The position numbers were made by a program, and so were the translations under genes. The notes beneath the pieces were generated by a model. It was given only the letters and a program-made list of their open reading frames with translations, had not been told where the DNA came from and did not search any database. This document shows, piece by piece, positions 270 to 25,400 of a stretch of 27,164 nucleotides of DNA. The DNA lies in the IMG/VR virus record IMGVR_UViG_3300005512_000273, positions 1-27,164 of that record. One strand, 5' to 3'. The stretch is from a virus. Lineage: Duplodnaviria; Caudoviricetes. Each line of letters begins with the position of its first letter. Within the stretch, counting starts at the first letter, position 1.

Positions 270-633
270 ACACAGGCACGTTATGCTTGATTATTGGGGC
301 AATCCTGACAATGAGTTTATCAGCCGGACCGATATGTACAGAAGTATTCTTAAGATCAGGAGACAGACGTTTTACAAGCATTTCACTCCTGTTGAGCTTT
401 CAAAAATCGAGCATGACGCGCTCGAGCTGAGGAAACAGAATTCAAGCAGGGATCGTGCAGAAGTTTACAAGGCCCTTACCGAGCAGGCCAAGGCGGGTAA
501 GGTTAGAGCAATCAAAGAATTCCTCGACAGAATAGAGGGTAAGGTTATTGACAGACAGAAAATAGACTTTGGGGAAGACACAATCAAAAACGCTTTGTTG
601 AGCATTGACAGGATGCGGCAGGGCAAGTCTTGA
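253..633 (+). CDS. Putative terminase small subunit
   Basis: 126 aa, overlaps TerL start; HTH-like ISRTDMYRSILKIRRQTFYKHF and the helix ALTEQAKAGKVRAIKEFLDRIEGK seen in TerS-like proteins. Confidence 0.65.
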   Translation: MTAKDRHRHVMLDYWGNPDNEFISRTDMYRSILKIRRQTFYKHFTPVELSKIEHDALELRKQNSSRDRAEVYKALTEQAKAGKVRAIKEFLDRIEGKVIDRQKIDFGEDTIKNALLSIDRMRQGKS

Positions 634-2021
634 ATTTTCACGACAAAATCATAGACCTTACGATTGGTTATCAAGCCGATCCTCAAGCGTTCATCCGCGA
701 AATTATTCTGGCAGATCCGACAGAACAGCAATCCTCCCTGGTTACAGCAATCGCGACCCCAGGGGCTCACGTTTCAATACGGTCCGGCCATGGCACCGGG
801 AAGACAACGAGCCTATCTTGGGTTGTCCTCTGGTTCCTATCCTGTTTCCCCAACGCTAAAATCCCGTGTACCGCGCCGACAGGCCACCAGCTTTTCGACC
901 TTTTATGGCCGGAAATCCATAAATGGCGTGATCGGATGCATTCGCCATGGAGGCAGGCAATCAAAATCACTGCAGACAGGGTGGCAATAACGGGGATGGA
1001 GAAAACACAGTTCGCGGTTGCCAGGACGGCCAGGCCAGAAAACCCGGAAGCATTACAAGGGTTCCATGCAGACAACCTTCTTTTTCTGATTGACGAGGCA
1101 AGCGGGGTCCCGGAAAAGGTGTTCGAGGTCGCAGAAGGCGCGTTATCAACAAAAAATGCAAGGGTTATCATGACCGGAAACCCCACCAGGACAGACGGGT
1201 ATTTTTTTAGATCGCACCACCAGGACCGGGCCTTGTGGGACACTCTGCATTTTAACTGCCTTGGGTCTCCGCTCGTAGACCCGTTATATCCACAGCAAAT
1301 GGCCCAGAAGTATGGCGAGGACTCTAATATTTACAGGGTGCGCGTTCTGGGGGAATTCCCAAAAGCGTCGGATGATGTGCTGATTCCATTGTATCTGATT
1401 GAGGACGCAGTGGGTCGTGATGTCGAGTTCCCAATATCAGAGACAATCGCGGCCCTTGACGTTGCGCGGTTTGGTGATGATGCCAACGCGTTTCTAATCC
1501 GCAAGGGTTTGTCAGTGAATTATATCGAAGAGTGGCGCAACAAGGACCTGATGCAGACAACAGGCAAAATCGTTGAGGCGTATCGAAAAAAGATGTTTGA
1601 CCGGATTATGGTTGATTCAATTGGTCTCGGGGCCGGGGTCGTTGACCGTCTGATCGAAATGAATGTCCCGGCAATAGCGGTCAATGTGGCCGAGTCTTCA
1701 GCACAAAAAGAAAATTTCAGCAGACTTCGGGACCAGTTATGGTGGGCCTGCCGAGAATTTTTTACAGAAAAACAGGGCAGGATTGACCCGTGGGTTGATC
1801 ACTTGGATGATTTAATAGGGGAACTTTCCGCTGTTCGGTACAAAATTTTGTCGAACGGGAAGATTAAGATTGAGGACAAAGACGAGATGAAAAAACGAGG
1901 GCTACTCAGCCCAAACATTGCGGACGCTCTTTGCTTGACTTTTGCCGAGGGTGTAAGCCCACGGGCAAGGCAGATATCATCTGTTCCGGTCGTGAGGCAG
2001 GCGTCGGGAGGATGGACATAA
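630..2021 (+). CDS. terL: Terminase large subunit
   Basis: Walker A SGHGTGKT, Walker B LFLIDEASG, coupling motif TGNP, nuclease motifs LDVARFGDD and SPNIADAL; TTG start overlaps the upstream stop. Confidence 0.95.
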   Translation: MNFHDKIIDLTIGYQADPQAFIREIILADPTEQQSSLVTAIATPGAHVSIRSGHGTGKTTSLSWVVLWFLSCFPNAKIPCTAPTGHQLFDLLWPEIHKWRDRMHSPWRQAIKITADRVAITGMEKTQFAVARTARPENPEALQGFHADNLLFLIDEASGVPEKVFEVAEGALSTKNARVIMTGNPTRTDGYFFRSHHQDRALWDTLHFNCLGSPLVDPLYPQQMAQKYGEDSNIYRVRVLGEFPKASDDVLIPLYLIEDAVGRDVEFPISETIAALDVARFGDDANAFLIRKGLSVNYIEEWRNKDLMQTTGKIVEAYRKKMFDRIMVDSIGLGAGVVDRLIEMNVPAIAVNVAESSAQKENFSRLRDQLWWACREFFTEKQGRIDPWVDHLDDLIGELSAVRYKILSNGKIKIEDKDEMKKRGLLSPNIADALCLTFAEGVSPRARQISSVPVVRQASGGWT

Positions 2022-2318: not shown

Positions 2319-4460
2319 ATGATTGAGTTTAAGACCAACCAGCAACTTGACGCCGAGGAAGCCGCTCAAGCCAAGGCAGACAAGGAAGCCAAGGACCGGC
2401 AGCAAAGAGCCGTCGTCACGTCGTTGGCTTCATACGTTCGTGATTGCTGGGAAGCGGCTAAAGAGGCCAAGGTTGATATTGAAAAAAGAATGATTGACTC
2501 GCTTCGGAGCAAGAACGGAATATATTCTCCGTCAAAGCTGGCAGAAATCCAAAAGCACGGCGGGTCTGAAATATTCATGATGCTGACGGACGAAAAATGC
2601 ACGGCGGTTTCGTCGTGGCTGTCCGACATTCTTTTTCCTGCCGGAGAGGAACCATGGGCAATCAAGCCGACGCCGGTCCCGGAGCTGAGACCGGAAAAAG
2701 TGATGGAGCTTAAACAACACATCGTCGGGGAGGCACAGACCTATATTAAGGAGGACGCCATTGCCGCCGTTTACGCCGGTGAGATCAAGACGGAAACGCA
2801 ATTCAAGGATTATATGTTGTCTGCTATGCAGGACCGGCTTGAAGAAATGTCAGATGATATCCGCACGGAAATGGAGAAGGCAGCAAAAGAAGCCCGGGAC
2901 AAGATAGAGACCAAACTAAAAGACGTGGTGATCGAGTCTGGATGGAGAGAAGCCGTGAAAGAATCTCTTGATGATATTGCCACGTTCCCGGCAGGGATTG
3001 TCAAGGGGCCGGTGCTGCGGAGAAAGAAACGGCTGAAATGGAAGAGCGGGTATCAGGACCAGGATCAGATGGACAAGGGATACCAGGGCTTTCAAACGTC
3101 GCCTGCAGAGGTGGTCGAAGAGGTCCGGATTGACTTCAACCGGGTCAGCCCGTTTGATATTTATCCCCTGCCGAATGCCAGGACGCCGGAAGACGGCATA
3201 ATCGAACGTCACAGACTGACACGGCGGTATCTCACTTCTCTTATCGGTGTCCAGGGGTATGACAATGACGCAATCCGTATGGTTCTCCAGGATTACGGCA
3301 ATTCCGGTCAATCTACCTGGCTGTCCATTGCGAACGATCAGACCCGGCAGACCCTGGAAAACAGGCCCAACGAGTGGAGATCCCCTGAAACTATGATTGA
3401 TGCCCTGCAGTTCTGGGGCAATGTCCAGGGGTTGAAACTGCTTCAGTACGGCATGAGTCCTGAAGCGGTCCAGGACCCGTTTGCCGATTACGCGGTCGAG
3501 GTCTGGCTGATCGGCAACTATGTGATCAAGGCCGAGATCAACGGCGATCCCATGGGCCGGGTGCCCTACAATTTTGCATCTTTTCGGAAGCAGAACGGCA
3601 GTATTTGGGGGAAGGGTCCACCCGAGGTGTTCAAGGACTCCCAGGATGCCTGCAACGCTGCAGCAAGGAACCTGATCAATAATATGGGAATAGCTTCAGG
3701 CCCACAGGTGACCGTGGACGTTTCTCAGTTGCCGGCGGGAGCGAATATTACCGATTTGTACCCGTGGAAAATCCACCAGGTCAATACCGAGTCGGCCATG
3801 GGGTCTGGCGCGAACAAGCCGCCCATATCGTTTTTTGTACCTCCTACGGTGGCCAATGAGCTGATCGGGGTTTACAAGTTCTTTTCCGAGGAAGCAGACA
3901 ACAAAACGGGTGTCCCGAAATATTCATATGGTGGTGAGGCCAAGGGCGGCGCATTGGGCACGGCGACCGGCTTTTCAATGATGATGGGCAACGCAGCCCG
4001 GGGAATCAAGCACGTTGTCGGAAATATCGACGCCGGGATTATCAAGCCTACGATTGAGCGGACCCATGAGTTTCAAATCATGTTTTTCCGGGACCCGGAA
4101 TATTTTATCGGGGATATCAAGGTGATTGCCCGTGGATCGTCTGCCATGGTTGCAAAGGAACAGGCAGCCGTAAGGCGCAACGAACTCCTGCAGATTGCCG
4201 TACAATCGCCGGATGTCATGGCGGTTATCGGCCAGGTCGGGCTTGCATCGATGCTGCATGAGATTTTCAAGTCGGCGGATTTTAAGGATGACGAGATTGT
4301 ACCGGCTAAAAAAGAAATGCTGCGACGAGAACGTCAGCAGCAGATGGCAATGGAACAGCAGGCCCAGATTGAGCAGCAATCACAGGCAGGCGATGGGGTT
4401 GGTCCAGAAACAGACCCGGCAGGTAATGTGGCCGGAGGAAGGGATGTAAGGACGGTATGA
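2319..4460 (+). CDS. Portal protein
   Basis: 713 aa after TerL, AGGAG RBS; GIVKGP, RVSPFDIYP, WGKGPPE, D.QD.CNAAARNLINN..IASGPQV and TATGFSMMM motifs typical of podovirus portals; Q-rich C-terminus. Confidence 0.9.
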   Translation: MIEFKTNQQLDAEEAAQAKADKEAKDRQQRAVVTSLASYVRDCWEAAKEAKVDIEKRMIDSLRSKNGIYSPSKLAEIQKHGGSEIFMMLTDEKCTAVSSWLSDILFPAGEEPWAIKPTPVPELRPEKVMELKQHIVGEAQTYIKEDAIAAVYAGEIKTETQFKDYMLSAMQDRLEEMSDDIRTEMEKAAKEARDKIETKLKDVVIESGWREAVKESLDDIATFPAGIVKGPVLRRKKRLKWKSGYQDQDQMDKGYQGFQTSPAEVVEEVRIDFNRVSPFDIYPLPNARTPEDGIIERHRLTRRYLTSLIGVQGYDNDAIRMVLQDYGNSGQSTWLSIANDQTRQTLENRPNEWRSPETMIDALQFWGNVQGLKLLQYGMSPEAVQDPFADYAVEVWLIGNYVIKAEINGDPMGRVPYNFASFRKQNGSIWGKGPPEVFKDSQDACNAAARNLINNMGIASGPQVTVDVSQLPAGANITDLYPWKIHQVNTESAMGSGANKPPISFFVPPTVANELIGVYKFFSEEADNKTGVPKYSYGGEAKGGALGTATGFSMMMGNAARGIKHVVGNIDAGIIKPTIERTHEFQIMFFRDPEYFIGDIKVIARGSSAMVAKEQAAVRRNELLQIAVQSPDVMAVIGQVGLASMLHEIFKSADFKDDEIVPAKKEMLRRERQQQMAMEQQAQIEQQSQAGDGVGPETDPAGNVAGGRDVRTV

Positions 4461-5248: not shown

Positions 5249-5490
5249 ACAAGTTTGACCTGAATGTCAGGGCAGACAAGGAAGTTGTCCGTGCGGTCGC
5301 AAAGCTGCAGTTCCAGGATGACTTTAAAATATACTCGTCGTACCTGCAGGGCGAACTCGACGCCTTAAGAAAACAGACAGACACGGCCACGGGCGACCTT
5401 TTGAAATGGTTCCAGGGCCGGGCACAAATGCTGCAAATGCTGGTTGACTTACCGGAAATGTGCCGCGATATCATCAAAAAATCCAACTGA
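5245..5490 (+). CDS. Small head-module protein preceding the scaffold gene
   Basis: 81 aa helical protein, ATGA overlap, WFQGRAQML motif typical of small genes between portal and scaffold. Confidence 0.6.
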   Translation: MNKFDLNVRADKEVVRAVAKLQFQDDFKIYSSYLQGELDALRKQTDTATGDLLKWFQGRAQMLQMLVDLPEMCRDIIKKSN

Positions 5491-5519
5491 AACCCCTCCT
5501 TTTATCTATATACCCCTAT

Positions 5520-5645
5520 GTGGGTGGCGTGTTATTGCCACATTCCACCCACCCAATTTACAGTGACGGTAGCCGGATACCTTGCGCCAATAGGCGCAGG
5601 ACCCACCAAAACTTTTTATAGCGCGATACCCATCAAAGGACCGCG
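5520..5645 (+). promoter_or_regulatory. Structured leader upstream of scaffold gene: three hairpins, two sharing GATACC...GGACC
   Basis: GTGGGTGG/CCACCCAC (5520-5552); GATACC-TTGCGCC-AATA-GGCGCA-GGACC (5576-5603); CGC-GATACC-CATCAAA-GGACC-GCG (5622-5645) next to the RBS. Confidence 0.5.
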
Positions 5646-5656
5646 AAAGGAAAAAG

Positions 5657-6673
5657 ATGCAGCTACCGAATGCCGTAAAAAAAGCCGCTGAGAACTCAGA
5701 GGCAATGGCAAAACAACTGAGAGAAGGAAAGCCCCAGGATCGTTACGGGACCACTCCGCAGGTCGGAACCCCGAAAGATGGCCAACGGGAGACTTTGCCG
5801 AAAAAGGTTGATGACCAGACCAACAAGCCTGCAGACACTCCGCAGAACAGCCAGACGCAACAACCAAAAGAGGACGAAGAAACTTACAAACAGCGATATT
5901 TCACGCTTAAGGGAAAGTTTGATTCAGAAGTCCCAAGGTTACAGCAGGATGTCCGGAACCTACAGCAATACCTGTCTGATCTGAAAAAAGAAAATGAGCA
6001 GCTTATGGAAGCTGCAAACAACCCCAACAACAAAGATCCCGTGAATGAAGGAAAGTCGTCTTCCCTTGACCCGGAAGTGTTCAAAGAGTATGGCGAGGAT
6101 TTTGGTGCCCTTGTCGAAACCATCCAGACGGTCCAGGCCGAGAACAAAACCTTGAAAAAGGAGTTGTCCAGGCTTTCCGGGGATGTGTCTCAGTCAAGGG
6201 AAAGCCAGCAGGCAAGGGTTTACAATGATTATCTGGGCCAGGTGAAGGCGCAGCTCTCATCCGGCTTCAATGTCGAGTTTGACACGATCAACAGTGACCC
6301 CAACTTTCTTAACTTTTTGAGGCAACACGCCGGGAATGAGAGTGAACCCCGGTTTGCCAAGCTGAAAAAGGCCGAGGCCAACTGCGACCTTCCATCCACC
6401 ATGGCGATCTTTAAAGAATATTTAGGCAACCCGTCCCGGCAGAACGGCCAGGATAACTTGCCAGCACCCAACCTTCAACCCAACCCGAAGAACACCGGCA
6501 CTGACTTGAATCCGCCTGCGCCTGCCGCGAGTACGCGCACATGGACAAGGAAAAGCATTGCACAGTTTTACAAAGATAAAACAGCCGGGATGTTCAACGG
6601 ACGTGAGGATGAGGCGAAACTGCTGGAACAAGATATCTTCCTGGCCCCACAGCAGGGGAGAGTGGTGGCCTGA
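5657..6673 (+). CDS. Capsid scaffolding protein
   Basis: Directly upstream of MCP; low-complexity N-terminus, YKQRYFTLKGKFDSEVPRL followed by coiled coil, C-terminal WTRKSIAQFY...LEQDIFLAPQQGRV. Confidence 0.8.
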   Translation: MQLPNAVKKAAENSEAMAKQLREGKPQDRYGTTPQVGTPKDGQRETLPKKVDDQTNKPADTPQNSQTQQPKEDEETYKQRYFTLKGKFDSEVPRLQQDVRNLQQYLSDLKKENEQLMEAANNPNNKDPVNEGKSSSLDPEVFKEYGEDFGALVETIQTVQAENKTLKKELSRLSGDVSQSRESQQARVYNDYLGQVKAQLSSGFNVEFDTINSDPNFLNFLRQHAGNESEPRFAKLKKAEANCDLPSTMAIFKEYLGNPSRQNGQDNLPAPNLQPNPKNTGTDLNPPAPAASTRTWTRKSIAQFYKDKTAGMFNGREDEAKLLEQDIFLAPQQGRVVA

Positions 6674-6685
6674 TAGGAGACTATC

Positions 6686-8960
6686 ATGGTTTATCCAATT
6701 GATTCGAGTCTTGGTGCGTATAGCAACGACACCAACAACGGTCTTTCCGGCACATACATTCCGGAGATTTGGTAGTTAAAATGGCCAAATTAAAATTGAA
6801 TCTGAATAACGGGGAAGCAAAAGCCGACCCGATGCAAGCGAGAAAAACTCAAATAAACACCCAGAAGGGTTAGGCATGAGTGAAAAATACATAGCAGGGT
6901 TTATCGACGCAGACGGACATATCTCAATAAGGTGCCGGGTTAATTCAAAGCCGGACCTTGAGGTTTCAATGTCTCAGCGTGCAGACTTTCTCGATCCTCT
7001 TTATGAGGCGCAAGAAATGTTTGGAGGGGCCATAAGAAACAAATTTGAGGGGCAGCATTGTGAACTTCAAATAAGGTCCGGCCCTGCGAGGAAATGTGTT
7101 GAACGTCTTAAAAAATATTTAGTTGTGAAAAGATACCAGGCTGAACAATATCTCGGTATGGTAGATGCCGCACCGATTTTAAGATCGAAGGAAGAGGTTG
7201 TTTCTTTTAGAAAAGATGTTAAATCGGTGCGTCGAGTAGAGTCTCTCCCTGTCCAAAATTACCCAACAAGGAAATGGATGGCCGGGTATATTGACGGTGA
7301 CGGCTCATTTGGTGTGAAGGTTTGCAAGAAAACAGGGTATGCTTATCCAACCTTGTCAATATTGAGCGCTGATAATTACACGGCAGGCATATTGCTTCTG
7401 AAGAAGGCCTTCGGTGGAAGAATATGCAGGACAGGGACAAGCTATTTGTGGCAATTACAGCTCTCACAACCAAGCAAATCTAAGCAAGTCTTAGGTTATT
7501 TCACAAAATATTTAGAAAAGAAACAAGACGTAGCCCGTTTTCTTTATGAGTGTGCAAAGAATGGAAACTTCCGTGATGGAGAAGCCATTCGCAATATAGT
7601 CAAAACGCTCAACTCGCAGCAGCACAGACTGAGTGATTCAACCGCAACGGTTAAAGAGTCCATAAGCACCATTAACTTTGGCATTGTCAAAAAAAAGGTT
7701 GGCAGGCCGGTGGGTGTTATTGAAACACGACCAAGACGGAAGCGACAGTCGAAACTACAAGAATATGTAGTATGCAGGAAAACTGATTGAAAAATTTTAT
7801 ATGTCAACCGTGTTCGCCGCGATCAGCAACACTGATTATGAGGGTTAATGGATAATGGCTCTCACTAAATCCCGTGAATTGCTGGAACACCCTTATAGCT
7901 TGCTATACCACAACGTAACCGGCAACGGTAAGCGTGATGGTTTAAAAAATAGCGGGATTGGGCAATCAGCAGCCAAGCAGCCTGGTGACAGGTTGAAGGT
8001 TCAGAGACTAGATAAAGTAGCCTTGATTAAAGGTGAAATATCCACGAGTGCGGGACAATGTTTTGCTTGTAAACGGAAGAAACATTGAAGATATAGTCCG
8101 GTCTGCATGGAAACATGCAGGAGTCGGAGATAAACACTCCGAACGTAAACAAAACGGAAATTTCCTCTTACGGCGATAAAGTACAGATCAGGACCGTTCC
8201 TGATATCACCATTAACGATTATGAGATCGGGCAGTCTCTGAACTACGAGAAGCCACGATCCGACAACGTTGAACTGCTGATCGATCAGGGTAAGTATTAT
8301 GGCGTGGCCATTAACAGCGTTGAAAAGAAACAGTCAGATATCGACTATGTTTCCAAATGGGCAGAGGACGCAGCAGAACAGATGAAAATTGCCATTGATA
8401 CTGATATCCTGGCTGCTCTTCCCGCACTGGCTGATTCTGACAATGCAGGCACAACCGCCGGTTACATTTCCGGGAACATCGACCTTGGCGTCGCCACCAC
8501 GGACGGTTCTACAGCAGAAATCCTGCTGAAGTCGACAGTTGTCGACAAAATGGTCGAGTGTGGACAGGTGTTGACAGAACAGAACGTGCCCCAGACCGGA
8601 AGATGGTTTGTTATCCCTGCCTGGCTGGCAACCCGGATCAAAACGTCTGAGCTTTCCGAGGCCAGCTATGCCGGTGACGGTGTTTCCATGAAACGAAACG
8701 GACGGATCGGCGTGATTGATACCTTTGAGATTTTTGTATCCAACAACGTCTCTACCACCACCGAGACCGCCGTTACCTGTTACAGCGCATTGTTCGGGCA
8801 CAAATCGGCCCTGACCTTCGCGTCGCAACTGACTGAGAACGAGATGATCGATAACCCGGACGACTTCGGGAAGCTCATGAGAGGGCTACAGGTTTACGGT
8901 TACAAGGTCATTAAGCCTGAGTCCCTTGGGCACCTGTACTGCAAGGCGAACCTGACATAG
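6686..8960 (+). CDS. Major capsid protein, split by two group I introns: join(6686..6773,7775..7845,8157..8960), 320 aa
   Basis: AGGAG RBS before ATG 6686; the spliced product reads ...SGTYIPEIW-S-GKLIEKFYMSTVFAAISNTDYEG-EISSYGDKVQIRTVPDITINDY..., a contiguous MCP N-terminal signature (IPEIWSGKL, NTDYEGEI, GDxVxI); ends ...RGLQVYGYKVIKPESL. Confidence 0.93.
6774..7774 (+). mobile_element. Group I intron 1 (1001 nt, IB-like) with homing endonuclease gene
   Basis: Exon ends in U6773, intron ends in G7774; P1 ATTTGGT/GCCAAAT (6784-6790) with U-G at the splice site; P3 TTGAATC (6796-6802)/GATTCAA (7635-7641); P6a GCGAG (6838-6842)/CTCGC (7613-7617); P7 GACTG (7627-7631)/CAGTC (7746-7750); P9 ACTACA/TGTAGT; removal restores the MCP frame. 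Confidence 0.9.
6876..7790 (+). CDS. LAGLIDADG homing endonuclease, two-motif (monomeric) type
   Basis: YIAGFIDADG and WMAGYIDGDG motifs; starts in the P6 loop of intron 1. Confidence 0.93.
   Translation: MSEKYIAGFIDADGHISIRCRVNSKPDLEVSMSQRADFLDPLYEAQEMFGGAIRNKFEGQHCELQIRSGPARKCVERLKKYLVVKRYQAEQYLGMVDAAPILRSKEEVVSFRKDVKSVRRVESLPVQNYPTRKWMAGYIDGDGSFGVKVCKKTGYAYPTLSILSADNYTAGILLLKKAFGGRICRTGTSYLWQLQLSQPSKSKQVLGYFTKYLEKKQDVARFLYECAKNGNFRDGEAIRNIVKTLNSQQHRLSDSTATVKESISTINFGIVKKKVGRPVGVIETRPRRKRQSKLQEYVVCRKTD
7846..8156 (+). ncRNA. Group I intron 2 (311 nt, IA-like, no endonuclease)
   Basis: P1 TGAGGGT/GCTCTCA (7858-7864) with U-G; P AATTGCTGGAA (7877-7887), Q AATCAGCAGCC (7964-7974), R GTTCAGAGACTA (7999-8010), S AAGATATAGTCC (8088-8099); insertion between P7 and P3; P8 CAATGTTT/AAACATTG; P9 CTGCATG-GAAA-CATGCAG; terminal G8156; removal restores the MCP frame. 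Confidence 0.95.
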
Positions 8961-8980
8961 CAGTTATTTGAATACTGTTC

Positions 8981-9018
8981 ATGGACCTGGGAACCGCACT
9001 GATAACTCCCAGGTCCAT
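8981..9018 (+). other. Perfect 12-bp stem-loop after MCP (mRNA stabiliser, processing site or weak terminator)
   Basis: ATGGACCTGGGA-N14-TCCCAGGTCCAT; no clear U-tract. Confidence 0.5.
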
Positions 9019-9050
9019 TACCAAATTTAATAATCACGGGAGATAGAACA

Positions 9051-9467
9051 ATGAAATTGAGAATGATAAAAAAATTAGAGTCCCAGATCATGAACGCGGA
9101 TGACTTCACGGATGCCACCGAGACCACTGGTACACTGGCATTTGATGACAAACTGCCGGTCGGGGCCATGGTCCTCGGCTGGAAGGCTGTCGTAACCGGG
9201 GCCTTTACAGGTGATACGTCCTGCCTTCTTTCGGTTGGGATTTCGACTGATGCGGACAAGTTCTCGGCAGACACCACAGAGAATATTTTTGCCGCTGGAA
9301 CATATGGGTCCCTTGCTTTGGCCGCTGATGCGGTAACAGGGCTCGGAGCAGAGATGACCCCGTTTGTCACGATTACCAGTGCCACCAACATGACGCTGGT
9401 TATTGCCGACGGGACAGGACAGATGGTCGTCACCCTGTATTACATCGACACCGCAGAGGACGATTGA
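9051..9467 (+). CDS. Putative capsid decoration/minor head protein
   Basis: Follows MCP; T/A/G-rich beta-type sequence LPVGAMVLG..VVTGAF.G.....LSVG...D.D.F. Confidence 0.6.
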   Translation: MKLRMIKKLESQIMNADDFTDATETTGTLAFDDKLPVGAMVLGWKAVVTGAFTGDTSCLLSVGISTDADKFSADTTENIFAAGTYGSLALAADAVTGLGAEMTPFVTITSATNMTLVIADGTGQMVVTLYYIDTAEDD

Positions 9468-12801: not shown

Positions 12802-15061
12802 TCCCAATATCCCCAATATCCCCCCGTCTGCCCCTGCAGACCATGTGTCTTTTTTCACGTCCGTCAAATCCTGCATCGAGGCATTGTCCGGTCAGGGCCG
12901 CAACACCGACGCAAACCGGGCCGTCCGGGTGAGTGACCTTGCAAGGCTTGGTATTGACATCGGCATGTTCTTGAGAAGCACGTCAACCAACCCGTATGAT
13001 ATTGTGACGCCTGACACGGAATCAGAATCTGAGGAAACCCCGGACCCTCCGGCAAATCTTTCCGTTACAAAATACACCTTTTCCCATGAGCTTGAGTGGG
13101 ATAACCCGGACGATCCAATTGTCTCTCACATCGAAATATGGATTGCTGAGAACAGCCAGGACAAAGAGGACGCCGTTTTAAGGGGCCTTGTGACTGTAAC
13201 GGAAGCATTAATGGGAGAGAAGGGGTATTATTCTTCAAAAAATTTCCCCATAACCAGCGATATGACATACTGGATACGATCTGTCAGCTTTGCGGGGAAC
13301 CATTCGGAGTGGTGCCCTCCTGACGCAATGGGCGGGTATGTGGTAACCGGAGTTGATTCTATCGGTGAGGCCATTGATAACATATTGGAAATACTAACCG
13401 GTGAAATTACAGAGGATGAGCTATATCAGGATCTGAATAGCAGGATTGATTTGATTGATACCCCTGGCACGGGGTTAATAGATCGGATGGATACGGTTGA
13501 AACCGATACTGGGACGAATGCAGCGGCAATCGTTACGGAACAAAATACACGGGCTAACGCGGACAGCGCATTATCATCAAGCATTTCAACCGTGCAAACG
13601 ACAGTCCAGACGAATGCAGCGGCAATCGTTACGGAACAAAATACACGGGCTAACGCGGACAGCGCATTATCATCAAGCATTTCAACCGTGCAAACGACAG
13701 TTAACGGTCATACCACTTCCATCCAGACGAATGCCACATCAATTGATGGTATCGAAGGAAAATATACCGTCAAAATTGACAACAACGGTTATGTTACTGG
13801 ATATGGATTAATTTCAACGGATAACGACGGTACGCCAACCAGTGAATTTATTGTCCTGGTAGATGAATTTAAGATTGTTACTCCCGGCAAAGCAGTGCAA
13901 GTGCCTTTTATTGTTGGGAATGTTGATGGAGTTTCAACAGTAGGTATCAATGGCAATCTGGTGGTGGATGATACGATATTGGCCCGGCATATCCAGGCAG
14001 AGCAGATCAAAGCCGAGCATATCCAGGCAGAGCAGATCAAAGCCGCGCATATTGATACCGCTGAATTATTCTCCATGATTGTCCAGAGTGAGGGCTATGT
14101 GGCAACGGGAGAAAGTAATCCTGCCGGCTTTAAAATTGATGGCCCCAATAAAACATTTGATATGGCAGGCTTCACATATGATGCGACAAATGGCCTTCAA
14201 ATAACGGATCCCAATAATGACCTGAGCATTAAATGTGTCAACCCAACAGACGGAAAATATTGTCAATTAAATGCTGGAGACCTGTCTTTTTTTCAGTATC
14301 TTGCCAGCGATTACCGTCTGACAAAATCGCTGAAACGGATAGATATCGGAACCGCCAATTCAGGCGATACTGTAACGCTTGAGGGATATTGGGAAGGAGT
14401 ACCCAATGTTTTTTGTTTTCCGGCCACGCTTGGCGTTTATGATGCTGGTTATCCGCTTCAAAGCCAAACACTTAGAATTGCTGCCGAGAATATCCAGGAA
14501 ACCGGGACAGGAACAGATAGATATCAATTTGATGCTGTTGCAGAATTGATCAATGCGGATGGCAGTGCTGGTGATTCGATTGCTCATACCTCTTCCGGGA
14601 CAACATCAACCGTAACCTGTTCGAGTCATGCGTTAGGTGTTTCAAACGTCAAACAAGTGACCTGTAACATTAGTGCAAAAGGATATTTTAAAGATTACAG
14701 GGGTTCACGTGACGGGTTTTCAGAATATCAATACAAACAACTCTATGTGACTGCTCGGCTGGATTATTATAATGGTTCATCCTGGGTGTTGGGGACACCG
14801 AGTTACTCCCAATTATCTATTAATAATGGGAATGTTTCATGGACCTTGTCAACAGCAGTATCAACACCTGATATTACCCATGTGAGAGCGTCGGTTATCC
14901 GAGGGGCTACTAATAATTATGTGTATGCCACCACCAACAACGAACCAGAAGGGGGCGCTGATTCATACCCCATCCAGGTGACGTTAACCAACTGGTCAGC
15001 TGATTTATCAGGCTTTGAAACCTATGCGGAAGGGTCTCTTGTCTATGTCGCAATTTTATAA
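12794..15061 (+). CDS. Tail fibre/host-specificity protein with FN3-like region, coiled-coil repeats and DUF1983-like domain
   Basis: PDPPANLSV...YWIRSVS..GN.S (FN3-like); EQNTRANADSAL repeats; KYTVKIDNNGYVTGYGL...SEFIV..DEFKI...PFIV; ATG 12794 preferred over TTG 12788 from GGAG spacing. Confidence 0.8.
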   Translation: MSDPNIPNIPPSAPADHVSFFTSVKSCIEALSGQGRNTDANRAVRVSDLARLGIDIGMFLRSTSTNPYDIVTPDTESESEETPDPPANLSVTKYTFSHELEWDNPDDPIVSHIEIWIAENSQDKEDAVLRGLVTVTEALMGEKGYYSSKNFPITSDMTYWIRSVSFAGNHSEWCPPDAMGGYVVTGVDSIGEAIDNILEILTGEITEDELYQDLNSRIDLIDTPGTGLIDRMDTVETDTGTNAAAIVTEQNTRANADSALSSSISTVQTTVQTNAAAIVTEQNTRANADSALSSSISTVQTTVNGHTTSIQTNATSIDGIEGKYTVKIDNNGYVTGYGLISTDNDGTPTSEFIVLVDEFKIVTPGKAVQVPFIVGNVDGVSTVGINGNLVVDDTILARHIQAEQIKAEHIQAEQIKAAHIDTAELFSMIVQSEGYVATGESNPAGFKIDGPNKTFDMAGFTYDATNGLQITDPNNDLSIKCVNPTDGKYCQLNAGDLSFFQYLASDYRLTKSLKRIDIGTANSGDTVTLEGYWEGVPNVFCFPATLGVYDAGYPLQSQTLRIAAENIQETGTGTDRYQFDAVAELINADGSAGDSIAHTSSGTTSTVTCSSHALGVSNVKQVTCNISAKGYFKDYRGSRDGFSEYQYKQLYVTARLDYYNGSSWVLGTPSYSQLSINNGNVSWTLSTAVSTPDITHVRASVIRGATNNYVYATTNNEPEGGADSYPIQVTLTNWSADLSGFETYAEGSLVYVAIL
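13513..13701 (+). repeat. Tandem repeat, 96-nt period, two identical 93-nt copies (32-aa unit)
   Basis: 13513-13605 = 13609-13701, encoding TNAAAIVTEQNTRANADSALSSSISTVQTTV. Confidence 0.95.
13987..14045 (+). repeat. Tandem repeat, 30-nt period (HIQAEQIKA x2)
   Basis: GCATATCCAGGCAGAGCAGATCAAAGCCG at 13987 and 14017. Confidence 0.9.
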
Positions 15062-19415: not shown

Positions 19416-19427
19416 GGATTCCCAGAA

Positions 19428-22400
19428 ATGCCATTATTTTTTGAGCCAGTTGACCACGACCCCTTTGCCGACGATTCCGCACCGGCAAACCAAACCATTA
19501 CCCTTGAAAAGGTCGGATATAACCCTTTCCCGGAAGATGAACAGCCGGTAGAAGAAGAATCCCCAACCGGAGCGATGGGCGCATTATATGGTGGAGTAAA
19601 GAACACTCTTCGAACCATGGGGACCGCCATTGATGTTGCAACAGGCGATGATGCAGGCGTTATGGAAACTGCAAGACAGAGCATAGCCCATCCAAACATG
19701 ACCCCGGCACAAGGCGATTTTAGGGCGACTTTAGCAGAGTACGGAGACCCTGACGGTGTGTGGGATGCAATTAAAAATGTGGCAAAGGCCGCATGGGAAG
19801 AGCCAAAAGGGGCATTACATGAAACCCTGTCCCAATTGCCGAATTCAGGCGTTATCATCGGGAGCATGAGTGCAGGCGCTGGTATAGGCACAATGATCGG
19901 TGGACCAGTCGGAACATTAGTTGGCGGCATAGCTGGCCTTTTTGTAGGGAATAGTTCAATCGAAACGGGGGCTATCGCAAATGAAAAGGCAATGGAAGGA
20001 GAATATGACCGTGGAGAGGCGATAGCGGGCGGGTTGGTAAAGGGCGGTGTGATTACTGCCGTTGATACTGCCACCTTGGGCCTTACTAAATGGTTGACCG
20101 GCACAGCAGGCAGGGCTACCACTCAAGCCGTTAACCGGGTTTTAGCCAACAAGGGTGTGAATATAGCCGACAAGGTTGCTGTTAAAGCGGCTTTGACGGA
20201 TAAGGTTATTTTCAGAGAGGCTAAGGAAGCCGGAAAGATTGCGGCGGAACAGGCATCTAAGGGCGTTATGCCGACATTGGGCCATGTCGGGTCATTTGCC
20301 GGTGAGGTCGCAGGAGAGGGCGTCGGGGAACATTTGGGCAGCACGCTTGCGCCTGGAATTGAAGCTGATTTGACGGACTCTGTTTTAGAATCATTGATGT
20401 CAGGGCCTCAAAGCATTGCCGAAGTAGGGGTGGGTAAAAGCCTCAACCTCTTGGACAAAAAACCAATAGATGATGCAGGCAATGACCTTGACCCTGACAA
20501 AGGGTTCGGCGGTGAAGATATCGGCGCCCAAGCTGACCAGGCACCAGTTCTGTTCGAAGGGATTGCAGAAGCAACCTCACACTTACCTGCGATGGAAGAA
20601 GAGTATTCCGAGAACATCCCGTTCCATGTCAAGAACATGAACGAGATTAATAACCAGAACATCATTAACGCCACCGAGTTTGAGACTGAATTAGAACCGC
20701 GTGACGTTCAGAGTCGGCAGGCCAACCAGGCCATGATTGATCAGACCAATATTCCGACAAATGCAGGCATTGACCTTTTGGCAAAAGATATCATGCAGGA
20801 CAAGATTGCCAGGAGTGAAACCGCATTAAACCAGCGACAGCAGGCCATGGGCCGGGCAGGGATGTACCAGTTCCAGCAGGGCATGGAGAACCAGCCGGGA
20901 GAAATGATGCCACAGGACGCGGCGACGGGATACGCCCCGGACGCAGCCGAAGACAGGCGGCAACAGGTGGTGGGTAGATCAGTCCAGGCGCTTGACCGAC
21001 GCAATCAACTCATGAGGCAGGCTGATCAGCCCGTCATGCAGAGGGCCATGGAGCAACAGCCGGACGCCTCATCCATGCCTTTACCAGGTGATATGCCGGG
21101 GTTCCAAAGAGGCATGGAAAATAATGGGGACGGTGGGAGATATCTTCCTTTTGCCGGGCTGGCTGATATGCTGCCGTCAGAAGTAACCTTGGCTGACCAG
21201 GACCAGAGCAGCTATGACGACGGCATTGATGTGGGTGCGGCAGACTTTGAGCCGTCATCTGTCAGGGACAATAGGAAATTCCAAACCGCACTATCAGATA
21301 ATTTCGGGAATCAAGACTTGCCTGCAGAAGGGATAACGGCAATGCGCCCGGTGTTTGAGCATGAGGTAGGACCGGACGAGGTGAACACGGAACCAACAGA
21401 CGCCCAGAAGGCAGCCGGGAATTATAAAAAATCTCATATCAAGATTGACGGGCTTGATATTTCCATTGAAAACCCGGACGGGTCCACCCGGAAAGGAAAG
21501 GACAAATCCGGGAAAGAATGGGAATCAACCATGTCCGGGCACTATGGATATTTTAGGAGATCCGAGGGCAAAGACGGGGATCAGGTTGACGTTGTGGTTA
21601 AGCCCGGGACCGAGACAAGCCCACAGGTGTTTGTTGTGGATCAGGTGGACCCTGAGACGGGCAAATTTGATGAACATAAGGTCGTCATGGGCACTGAGTC
21701 GGAAGAAGAGGCAAAGGCCCTGTACCTGTCAAATTATGAAGACGGCTGGCAGGGGTTTGGGGCCATTACCCGAATGGATCAGGCCGAGTTCAAGGACTGG
21801 CTGAAGGATGGGAAGCGGACAAAGAAGCCTTTGGGCACGCCTGAAACGAAACAGCCCGTTTCACCACCCGCCGTTGAAACGGCAGACATCATCCAGACGA
21901 ATAAAACAGATGATGGGGAGGTTGAGTTCTATATTACAAAAAGCCGGGTCGATGGTAAATACAGCGTGTCAATGATCGATGTTGATTCTCGCATGAACAT
22001 TGGTGCAACACGGTTTAAAGATGAGGCCAGCGCCAGAGATCATTTCAAAAAACAGCTTGATGAATATAACAATTACAACACCCCCGCCGCCTCTGACACA
22101 AGCGCAACGCCGGGGGTTACTTTCTCCCCAGGCGCAAAAGTCTCCTGGACCGACAAAAAAGGCAATGAGTTTTCAGGCAAGCTGACCAAGAAGGTCAAGT
22201 CGAACTGGTTTATTGATGTGGGCAAGGCAAAACCCGTGTTGATGCCGGAAAGTAAGTTGGCGGCAGTCGAATCTGAGAAAGAACCAGAATTGCCCACAGA
22301 TCCAGGGTTTATCCCCAACGTGGTTGGCAAAAACAGCAGGGGTGAAGAAATAATCACATACCCTGTCCAGCCCAACAAGCGGTGGATTGAAGGTGAAAAC

Positions 22401-25400
22401 GGGTCCTTGAGCGGAACAGAAGCCCTGCCGGAACAGCTGTTCAAAGAGGGCAGGACCCGGTTCCTGACAAAAGAAGAACAGCACACGCAGGCCATGCTTG
22501 CACAGCAGAAAGCTGAATCAGAGGTTGAGGCGGAGAAGGAAACTCCGGAACCCTCCACTGAAGGGATGTCTCCTGAGCTGGCATATCGGACAAAGTACCG
22601 TCATTGGGTGGAAACCGGGAAAAAGGGCAATCGCCCGTCTGTTCCCGGGCATTTGCCGATTCATGCCATGGAGAATATTCAAAAGTCAGTCGAGCGAGAC
22701 CTTGAGTATGACCGGGGAAAGCGGGAGGAAAACCAGGCCGTTAAGGTCTTCGCCAATAACATGGTTCACCAATGGGAAAAGGATACCGGTAGTCCTGCCA
22801 GTGAAGCCCGGAAAAAAGACTTGGAGCAGACCGGTAAAGAGCTTGCCCGGCAGATAAAAGAGCGTGACTTTCAAGCACTCACCGACCGCATGCACCGGGG
22901 GAATCCAGAATCCCTGCGGATGTTCCGGACACTTACCGGGGAATCAACCCAAAACGCTGATGCCATTAAAGCAAATATCCGGTCCCTTGATCCTGAAGAA
23001 TACGACGCATGGGATAAGGCCCGGAAGGAACTGGCTGCCAAGGATCAGGCAGACAAGGAAGAGGCAGAAGCAAAAAAAGCCCGTGAGGAAATGCTGAACC
23101 GTCCGGTAAATGAGCGGTTCAGTGACGAAACATGGGGTGATTGGGTAACCAGGCTGATTGAAGAAGGCCATGAGCTGAGAGAAGAAAAGCGCGGGTTTGC
23201 CACTGTTCTTACACTGAGCAAAGGGAACAATTTATATTCCTTTAAGACCAAGCAGGAACAGGAGTACGTCCAGGAACAGTACGACAAACTTTCCAGTGAG
23301 AAGATCCGGAATGAACTGGATGCAGAAGAAAAGGACAGGCAGGACAACCCGGATAAGTATATCACGGACGAGCAGGCGGATGAGCTGTTCGGGAAAAAGC
23401 CGAAGGAAGAAACACCCCAACAGGCCCCGACATCCGATGGTGAACAAATTATTCCAAAAGAAACATTAGCAAAGGCACGGTTAGAAGCAAAGGCCCTGTA
23501 CCTGTCAAATTATGAAGACGGCTGGCAGGGGTTTGGGGCCATTACCCGAATGGATCAGGCCGAGTTCAAGGACTGGCTGAAGGATGGGAAGCGGACAAAG
23601 AAGCCTTTGGGCACGCCTGAAACGAAACAGCCCGTTTCACCACCCGCCGTTGAAACGGCAGACATCATCCAGACGAATAAAACAGATGATGGGGAGGTTG
23701 AGTTCTATATTACAAAAAGCCGGGTCGATGGTAAATACAGCGTGTCAATGATCGATGTTGATTCTCGCATGAACATTGGTGCAACACGGTTTAAAGATGA
23801 GGCCAGCGCCAGAGATCATTTCAAAAAACAGCTTGATGAATATAACAATTACAACACCCCCGCCGCCTCTGACACAAGCGCACCGATGGGGGTTACTTTA
23901 CCCGGAAAGGTTGATGATGTCAAATTCCAAACCGCCTACCACGGGACACCGCACACATGGACCCCTGAGCCTGGGTTTCCTAACGGCAGGCCCAGGCTTG
24001 ATAAGATAGGGACCGGGGAAGGTGCTGCGGCTTACGGGCATGGGTGGTATTCGGCTGACTCTGAAGGGGTGGCAAACACTTATCAGAAAAGTATCAAAAA
24101 ATCTGGGTGGCGTGACGATGTTTGGGAGATGGCCATCCAATACCTTGATGAATATGCTTCAGATTTGCCGATCAAAAATGGGCAAGAAATAAAAGACTTG
24201 GCGGTTGAAACCATTGAAGAAGTAATCGCCAATGAAAACAATACAGGCTCTATTCAATTTGCAAAAGAGTTACTGTCCGTTGTGTCAAATATGAATCCGG
24301 CGAAATTCTCAGCAAAAGACGGAAAGGTTTATTACGATGGAATGGCATACGAAGAATCTGTCGGAAACAAGACTGGGTATCTTTCGTATGGCGACATCTA
24401 CAAGCTCGACATTCCGGACGAAGTAATTCCCAAGCTGCTTGATTGGGATAAGCCTCTTTCTGAGCAGAGTGGATATGTGAAATCCGCACTAAAAAATTTG
24501 AATAGTGACGGGAGAATCACAAATAAAACATATGATTCGTGGGTAAACGAGCTTTACAAAAAAGATAAAACCGGGTCAGCTCTGTACACCCTCCTGTCAA
24601 CCCAGATAGCAGCAAGCGATGGCAAAAATGCACATGTAGGAGACGACAAAGCCGCCTCAGAATATCTCGCCTCAATAGGCATCCCCGGCAACAAATACCT
24701 GGACGGAATGAGCCGGGGCAAAGGTGAAGGCAGTTATAATTATGTATTGTGGGATCAGGCTGTACTTGATCAAGTGGCCCTGCTTGAAAGAAATGGTGAA
24801 AAGTTAGAGGCGATACAGGCCGCCTATCAAACCAAATTGGCAGACACCGGCGAAAAGGGTAATATCAAATCAGTGACAGACAAAACGGGGAAGGCCGACA
24901 TACCCACTGTAAAAAACCCGCAGGCCGATGGTGGGAAAATTATATATGCTGGTACTTACGGAGAACCGGCAACAGAAATTATCCCATATGGAACCGACCT
25001 ACCTGGACATCGGGATAATATCTTTGGCGGTATTTTTGGGACATTCAATAAACACGAAACCGGGGCGCATGGCAATAAAGTCCAAACAATATTATCTCCG
25101 AACCATATAACCGCTGAAAATTTTAGAGCGCAAGCCCTTGGCGACGATTGGGGAAAAACACAAGAATATATAAAAGACATCTTCCACTATGAAGAATTAA
25201 CAGATTCAGAAATAGAGGAGCTCGCTGATTATATTTTTGAGGATAAAAATCTAAATGACACTGATCCCGACATGGGAACAGAAAGGTTTTCTGAAATTGT
25301 TCTTGGAGATATCCAAGATTGGACATTGCAGGGTGTCAAAGGCGAAATAGCAAGGAGATTTGGCTATACAAGCGTTGGCATGAAAGATGAACATGGCGAA

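Follow-up and report, generated by a model that had tools for sequence, protein, structure and literature searches.

Introns in phage capsid genes have been described before. In mycobacteriophage LittleE, RT-PCR and N-terminal sequencing demonstrated that the capsid gene is spliced (Pope et al. 2013, PMC3706429). In crAss-like Delta and Zeta phages, the accessible passages of Yutin et al. 2021 (PMC7886860) place group I introns typically in the capsid gene and report one gene in five fragments. Thus, capsid-gene introns, and several per gene, are already published. A gene of Staphylococcus phage Twort carries three group I introns and shows exon skipping (PMC3073962, citing Landthaler and Shub 1999). 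As to intron-encoded proteins, LAGLIDADG cargo is found in one of those listed for the Bastillevirinae in the part of PMC11878797 available to us.

We analysed a 27,164-nucleotide stretch, hereafter the window, that corresponds to positions 1-27,164 of IMG/VR virus record IMGVR_UViG_3300005512_000273 (Duplodnaviria; Caudoviricetes), an uncultured, incomplete contig. Loci of relatives are labelled L001, L002 and so on. The window encodes a tailed-phage head and tail module, with adaptor and tail genes besides terminase, portal and capsid. Its capsid gene is very probably split by two unrelated group I introns, both predicted to be spliced out. Intron 1 is likely mobile by means of its LAGLIDADG enzyme and intron 2 would be a passenger deprived of its HNH gene. 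The features of the locus are as follows.

630-2021, plus strand: terminase large subunit (head module context)
2319-4460, plus strand: portal (head module context)
5657-6673, plus strand: scaffold-like gene (label inferred from position)
6675-6688, plus strand: Shine-Dalgarno-like site (6675-6679) and capsid start codon (6686), from sequence and from the same start residue in uninterrupted relatives
6686-6773, plus strand: capsid exon 1, 88 nt, codons 1-29 and base 1 of Ser30
6774-7774, plus strand: intron 1, group I, 1001 nt (structure and covariation; no Rfam match)
6847-6881, plus strand: two-stem hairpin in L6a over a purine-rich site and the endonuclease start codon (folding z-scores)
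6876-7790, plus strand: gene of a two-motif (single-chain) LAGLIDADG endonuclease, 304 aa (Pfam PF00961, E 2e-15)
7775-7845, plus strand: capsid exon 2, 71 nt (found at this length in L105 too)
7846-8156, plus strand: intron 2, group I, 311 nt, without ORF (Rfam RF00028, 87 bits)
8115-8960, plus strand: mis-called ORF, 281 aa (present as a called protein; its ATG lies within the intron 2 P9 stem)
8157-8960, plus strand: capsid exon 3, 804 nt, codons 54-320 and stop (PHROG 267 match for the 8115-8960 frame)

Two other regions of the window contain repeats. An open frame of more than 2580 codons (19416-27164) runs off the window end and encodes two InPase-like domains and LPD23 (large polyvalent protein); a 417-nt stretch is repeated within it at 99% identity (21707-22123 and 23483-23899). 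In the tail-fibre gene, two identical 93-nt copies lie 96 nt apart (13513-13701).

The stop of the scaffold-like gene directly precedes the ribosome-binding site and start codon of the capsid gene. The exon coordinates and junctions proposed in the initial annotation give, once the exons are joined, 963 nt in a single open frame of 320 codons, interrupted at capsid nucleotides 88 (intron 1) and 159 (intron 2). The exon U, the P1 U-G pair and the terminal G that it had reported are present at both junctions (terminal G 7774 and 8156). The 6773/7774 junction is also the one picked by an automatic search, with a score of 112 against 71 for the runner-up. As argued there too, the capsid would depend on the predicted removal of both introns: the unspliced frame stops after 29 residues, and after 53 when intron 1 alone is removed. 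Exon 2 serves both introns, pairing in P10 with intron 1 and contributing a P1 strand to intron 2. We considered exon 2 skipping as a route to a second capsid form and rejected it: it leads to an immediate stop and yields only a 29-residue peptide. Reads of one DNA run (X1, share 0.05) are short pieces, mostly of other group I cores; none crosses either junction, and they carry no weight either way.

The warning that ORF callers would give the capsid a wrong N-terminus proved apt, the 8115-8960 frame being found as a called protein. This frame matches PHROG 267, major head protein (E 3e-50), from profile position 68 only. In uninterrupted L002 and L124, the match begins at profile position 38-39 and thus covers the exon 1-2 region. 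One may still read the gene as annotated, with an unspliced capsid starting at ATG 8115 and the upstream pieces as relics. The frame is indeed open over 281 codons and called as a gene. However, this start would swap 53 conserved residues for 14 intron-derived ones, and exons 1 and 2 are 64-79% identical to those of intron-2-bearing relatives. Moreover, the ATG sits inside the P9 stem and is missing in 3 of 6 intron 2 copies, and the ribosome-binding site is at 6675. We consider an ATG 8115 start extremely improbable and retain the 320-residue spliced product.

Uninterrupted relatives agree with that product. When viral contigs were scanned with exon 3, 110 relatives came up, and the best 80 were kept. 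Contiguous alignment with intronless capsids, proposed as a check in the initial annotation, is observed for 75 of these best 80, in one piece across both junctions. The other five are L001 (the same phage), three genes with intron 2 only and one that starts at residue 51. L001 is a second contig, 99.8% identical and with both introns, possibly from the same source and so not independent. Compared with uninterrupted relatives, the 320-residue capsid is 88% identical to L002 and 85% to L124; the block that spans the junctions matches at 33/35 and 32/35 residues, respectively. The contig of L124, 184 kb long, belongs to a Desulfobacula genome bin, the sole pointer to a host, which makes Desulfobacula a tentative host. 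A search for terminase in the genome holding L124 gave no match, so the prophage reading of this locus rests solely on collinear portal and head genes. The best match among cultured phages is a Rhizobium phage capsid, at 45%.

The structure of intron 1 was drawn on the window and then tested on 15 full-length copies.

6768-6789, plus strand: intron 1 P1
6796-6802/7635-7641, plus strand: intron 1 P3
6810-6831, plus strand: intron 1 P4
6833-6840/7615-7621, plus strand: intron 1 P6/P6a
7625-7631/7746-7751, plus strand: intron 1 P7
7642-7644/7737-7739, plus strand: intron 1 P8
7755-7770, plus strand: intron 1 P9
7774, plus strand: intron 1 terminal G

The P3-P7 pseudoknot core is present with P4, P6, P8 and P9, as is the G-binding G-C pair in P7. 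In the 15 sequences, 98.7% of cells are paired and 17 of 37 pairs show two-sided changes, a level reached by none of 500 shuffles; slid controls drop to 14-45% pairing. P3, which spans the whole ORF, has two-sided changes at 4 of its 7 pairs, and P7 at 2 of 6. P4, P6a and most of P7 are invariant and thus uninformative by themselves. In P1, the U-G pair is found in 15/15 and 4 of 6 pairs covary, and the P10 G-C is found in 15/15; since the junctions were selected to require U, P1 and G, only the covariation is independent support. P10 comprises only 1-2 pairs.

A scan with the Rfam group I model, also proposed at the outset, detects half of the case: intron 2 is matched with 87 bits, and intron 1 is left unmatched even at E up to 1. 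The same scan gave nothing for the intron 1 copies of L082, L084, L085, L088-L090 and L098. Because RF00028 is reported to miss group I subtypes (PMC6125680, PMC11878797, in the passages available), this miss is not a defining failure for intron 1. The intron has no P2, with 6 nt between the counted P1 pairs and P3, and no P7.1/P7.2, with 3 nt between P7 and P3'. Introns of the IB subgroup are not known to have P7.1. The accessible part of PMC1995217 names IC2, IA1 and IB4 as subgroups without P2. By its layout alone, intron 1 may be called IB4-like, and no more than that.

Intron 2 has another architecture.

7840-7863, plus strand: intron 2 P1
7870-7874/8051-8055, plus strand: intron 2 P3
8006-8010/8094-8098, plus strand: intron 2 P7
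8011-8042, plus strand: intron 2 P7.1 insertion
8056-8087, plus strand: intron 2 P8, with a short loop at the position of the relatives' HNH gene
8103-8120, plus strand: intron 2 P9
8124-8142, plus strand: intron 2 P9.1
8156, plus strand: intron 2 terminal G

It restores the frame, and has the P1 U-G pair, the terminal G, a full core and the RF00028 match. In six sequences, 98.4% of cells are paired and 13 of 53 pairs show two-sided changes (0/500 shuffles as high). The outer helix of the 40-nt insertion between P7 and P3' covaries in 3 of 4 pairs. This layout appears IA-like, and is classed no finer than IA. All 7 loci found by a pattern scan, three of them new, carry intron 2 at capsid nucleotide 159. 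L005 has an HNH gene (PF13392) in L8 and L135 an aligned ORF; short remnants are left in L003 and L130, and almost nothing in the window and L136. Judged from these copies, the HNH gene kept by relatives has been lost from the window's intron 2.

The view that the two introns differ and have separate origins is well founded. The spacing between the P7 5' strand and the P3 3' strand is 3 nt in intron 1 and 40 nt in intron 2, as had been noticed; the introns share only words of 8-14 nt, at chance level, and they carry different cargo in different loops. Both introns could be genuine but dead here, in a defective phage or prophage. The incomplete contig of an uncultured phage would allow for this, and the endonuclease frame now reads beyond the terminal G, as it does in only 2 of 18 family members. 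Against it, every helix of both introns is intact in the window, the neighbouring head genes are whole in the vicinity of the introns, and L001 retains both introns at 99.8% identity, possibly from the same source. We consider death of the introns very unlikely.

The LAGLIDADG cargo of intron 1, recognized from the start, is an intact two-motif protein. Its structural model (pLDDT 91.8, pTM 0.85) shows a two-domain meganuclease fold. Foldseek matched I-OnuI-type and single-chain I-CreI/I-MsoI structures (E 1e-14 to 1e-11, TM 0.55-0.65, 14-19% identity). We collected 98 relatives at E up to 1e-10. The catalytic Asp13 is found in 92 of them (5 gaps, 1 Glu) and Asp142 in all 98, and both are present in the window. 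In the GTDB collection, none of 115 pattern matches to endonuclease relatives was confirmed, and cultured phages gave three distant records only. PHROG 5046, which is labelled 'HNH endonuclease', matches these LAGLIDADG proteins; because of this label, PHROG-based counts may hide phage LAGLIDADG cargo.

The endonuclease frame starts in L6a and runs through P6a, P6, P7, P3, P8, P7', P9 and the terminal G, to a stop 16 nt inside exon 2. It thereby overlaps the 3' core by 156 nt, P6 through the terminal G, with loop L8 making up about 90 nt. Across the 17 family members measured, the overlap is 79-156 nt. The frame extends over the P7 3' strand in 15 of 18 copies and past the terminal G in 2 of 18, and the peptide encoded by P6-P7 is found in 96 of the 98 proteins. 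Uncorrected pN/pS counts between the window and seven relatives gave a pN of 0.26 against a pS of 0.85 outside the core, and a pS of 0.84 in L8. Over two core blocks, pS is 0.17 and 0.08, with non-synonymous differences of 0.26 and 0.35 outside them. This pattern indicates that the endonuclease is under purifying selection and that both the coding and the ribozyme layers are selected. The frame over the core and 3' splice site, the loss of the HNH gene and the hotspot described below are the points missing from the initial annotation.

An alternative is that intron 1 is not self-sufficient. The LAGLIDADG protein would then also be a maturase that folds the compact core, and capsid output would need the intron protein first. 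The core is minimal, with no P2, a very short P5 and a P8 of 3-5 pairs closing the coding loop of about 90 nt. Each of the 12 further loci examined from ribozyme-pattern scans has the ORF, with no ORF-less copy among them, and the 98 proteins share a basic C-terminal tail. A bacterial maturase precedent, the Thermotoga neapolitana 23S intron, is cited in the available part of PMC3984707. However, homing alone would account for the catalytic aspartates being intact in nearly all members, ORF-less copies that have diverged may escape the pattern scans, and the model gives the tail low confidence (pLDDT 55-77 for the final 40 residues). We regard a maturase role as unlikely and favor a homing enzyme.

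The hairpin over the endonuclease start codon has a z of -2.4 to -2.7 in the window. In the family, z is -2 or lower in 7 of 16 members and the hairpin is weak in 4 of 16; three site-88 copies vary widely (z -2.2, -0.8 and -0.4). The start region of the capsid gene itself folds about as well (z -2.0). The hairpin might act as a translational brake, and is put forward as a lead only. A tetraloop-receptor reading of its internal loop was considered by eye only and dropped. An internal promoter for the endonuclease found no support, with 2 sigma-70-like sites in 5400-9100 for 3.7 expected. The endonuclease frame has no stop inside intron 1; a full-length circle would join 7773-7774 to 6774 as an in-frame TGA. 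This TGA may be chance, and by eye it is absent in L097, the other read-through copy.

Automatic junction search placed 18 intron 1 copies at capsid nucleotides 88 (4), 101 (12), 102 (1) and 105 (1). L163 is a fifth full copy at site 88. By eye, more distant relatives can be placed in another capsid-like gene (L099-L101); a further one lies just upstream of the Pseudoalteromonas phage J2-1 terminase. The capsid region is a multi-site intron hotspot, with this family occupying at least four positions within a single capsid motif. We found no description of the intron 1 family in print, in a search of the main texts of mostly non-subscription papers, and a 2025 group I intron database (PMC11835236) may hold members. 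In J2-1 (L186; L102:1250-2056), a group I-like insert containing an unannotated LAGLIDADG ORF lies just before the terminase large subunit gene, whose annotation probably lacks the first exon. Two tandem LAGLIDADG introns are seen in another capsid-like gene (L099:3447-5216, L101:3988-5645). Near capsid codon 241, L087 has a further group I intron (1798-2628) with a 256-codon ORF without a Pfam match.

Four allele states occupy the same two sites. Neither intron is present in 75 of the 80 loci; intron 1 only is found in L082-L084, with L163 also having intron 1 at the same site; intron 2 only in L003, L005, L006, L130, L135 and L136; and both introns in the window and L105. In L105, whose contig ends inside intron 2, both introns surround the same 71-nt exon and the endonuclease is 64% identical to that of the window. 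A capsid tree was built from exon 3 with 48 rows, the intron-bearing ones fetched by searching for introns. Intron states are mixed on this tree. The sister of the window is the intron-free L002 (100/99), and in two supported sister pairs an intron-1-only gene stands with an intron-2-only gene. Splice-site bases differ too. All 4 intron 1 carriers tested have TCA as Ser30 codon, compared with 2 of 60 distinct stretches without interruption, and the Gly53 codon ends in U in 7 of 7 carriers against 20 of 60. In the sequences compared, carriers are thus enriched in the bases that P1 and P10 would need.

The mixed states fit homing, and the tree is compatible both with repeated gain and with ancestral presence followed by loss. 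In the latter case, both introns would be ancestral to the capsid clade and the mixed states would reflect repeated loss rather than separate recent invasions. In a 13-row clade (100/99), 9 rows have at least one intron, and the ORF of intron 2 shows decay to various degrees. The endonuclease has also diverged about as much as the capsid, with 63-70% endonuclease identity among site-88 copies near the 68-72% capsid identity. On the other hand, site 88 is filled in L163, whose capsid is 46% identical and outside the window's clade, one ribozyme-ORF lineage is found at sites 88, 101, 102 and 105, so movement is needed, and the introns, being unrelated, must have arrived separately at some time. 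Ancestral presence with repeated loss is a possible reading that we hold rather unlikely, and we keep to mobility of intron 1.

Relatives of the capsid gene also contain, after codon 26, mini-introns of 33-38 nt that lack a core but have P1, a 5-pair P10 and a terminal G (L087:128-163, L109:114-150, L097:4841-4873; also L167-L169, L171-L179 and L181-L185). There is no such insert in the window's capsid gene. A pattern scan found 20 loci, 17 in capsid-like genes and 3 judged to be chance. All five P10 pairs are present in 14 distinct copies, 2 of which show two-sided changes, and a second helix to the next exon beats all 300 shuffles. A full group I intron begins 21-72 nt downstream of these 14 copies (24 nt in L169, from the pattern scan), and this neighbour is an intron 1 relative in 5 of 14. 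Phage core-less mini-introns were not found described in print, again in the main texts of mostly non-subscription papers. L097:4841-6110 holds three capsid inserts in about 75 coding nt, namely a mini-intron, a LAGLIDADG intron and an IA-type intron after codon 50; an insert follows codon 50 in L111 and L171 too.

A more ambitious reading would join these elements. On this view, intron 1 represents a widespread phage family that has yet to be described, with ribozyme and enzyme written as a single text that cannot be taken apart: the final ~55 codons of the two-motif LAGLIDADG gene would serve as the catalytic core, and its product would act in homing as a nuclease and in splicing as a maturase. 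From each transcript, either capsid or nuclease would be made, by a switch set by the start-codon hairpin, and in relatives this same ribozyme would also excise a 33-38-nt core-less mini-intron 23-27 nt upstream, as helper of a two-part splicing system. We find this combination doubtful.

Splicing of both introns and homing of intron 1, as we infer them from sequence, might proceed as follows. By established group I chemistry, free guanosine would cut the 5' site and the freed exon U would attack after the terminal G, so that both introns would be spliced from late mRNA to give the 320-residue capsid protein. An in-frame stop lies at most 2 codons from the 5' site in 15 of 18 intron 1 family members and at codon 0 in 7 of 7 intron 2 copies. 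Such early stops would keep ribosomes off the folding core; they fit the view, cited in the accessible part of PMC3984707, that halting ribosomes helps intron folding. Since the last ~55 endonuclease codons double as core, translation and splicing would likely be mutually exclusive on each RNA, and the hairpin over the start codon would likely delay endonuclease translation. In co-infection or in a prophage, the LAGLIDADG enzyme would cut an intron-free capsid gene near the insertion site and repair would copy intron 1 in, making it a likely mobile homing element. Intron 2 would be a passenger that moves only with help.

The true sequence of the capsid, miscalled by gene callers and only half revealed by Rfam, is fixed by this analysis. 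The none, either and both states form a natural allele series for studying selfish ribozymes that compete for a block of 80 conserved nucleotides in a gene that is essential and highly expressed. The intron 1 family offers about a hundred candidate single-chain meganucleases with predictable targets, and intron 1 is a strong case of dual coding, one stretch being enzyme and ribozyme. The understanding of group I introns is unchanged by this case.

The comparisons that follow concern known systems as given in the accessible passages of the papers cited. One close parallel is LittleE, in which a probable group I intron likewise interrupts the major capsid gene close to its start, with an exon U, a terminal G and a LAGLIDADG-related ORF. 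However, the single LittleE intron measures about 820 nt and its 177-aa ORF is encoded on the opposite strand, whereas the window has two unrelated introns and a 304-aa, two-motif, sense-strand ORF over the core. The crAss-like phages are large gut phages for which these passages do not give boundaries or ribozymes; here there are two introns with exact junctions and empty alleles. Twort resembles the window in having several group I introns in one gene with short exons, but its three introns are mutually similar, whereas those of the window are unrelated and skipping of exon 2 leads to an immediate stop. Bacterial and archaeal IB4 rRNA introns (PMC1995217, PMC6125680) share with intron 1 the missing P2, the LAGLIDADG cargo and the fact of being often missed by RF00028. 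They reside in rRNA genes, with single-motif enzymes in the cyanobacterial cases, in contrast to a phage protein gene and two motifs here. Finally, the ORF of intron 1 recalls core creep (Edgell et al. 2011, PMC3073962), as in T4 td/I-TevI and the Synechococcus lividus LSU LAGLIDADG intron, where the ORF runs over P6-P9; T4 td also has a hairpin over the ribosome-binding site. The overlaps tabulated there are 0-81 nt, whereas that of the window is 156 nt and runs into the next exon.
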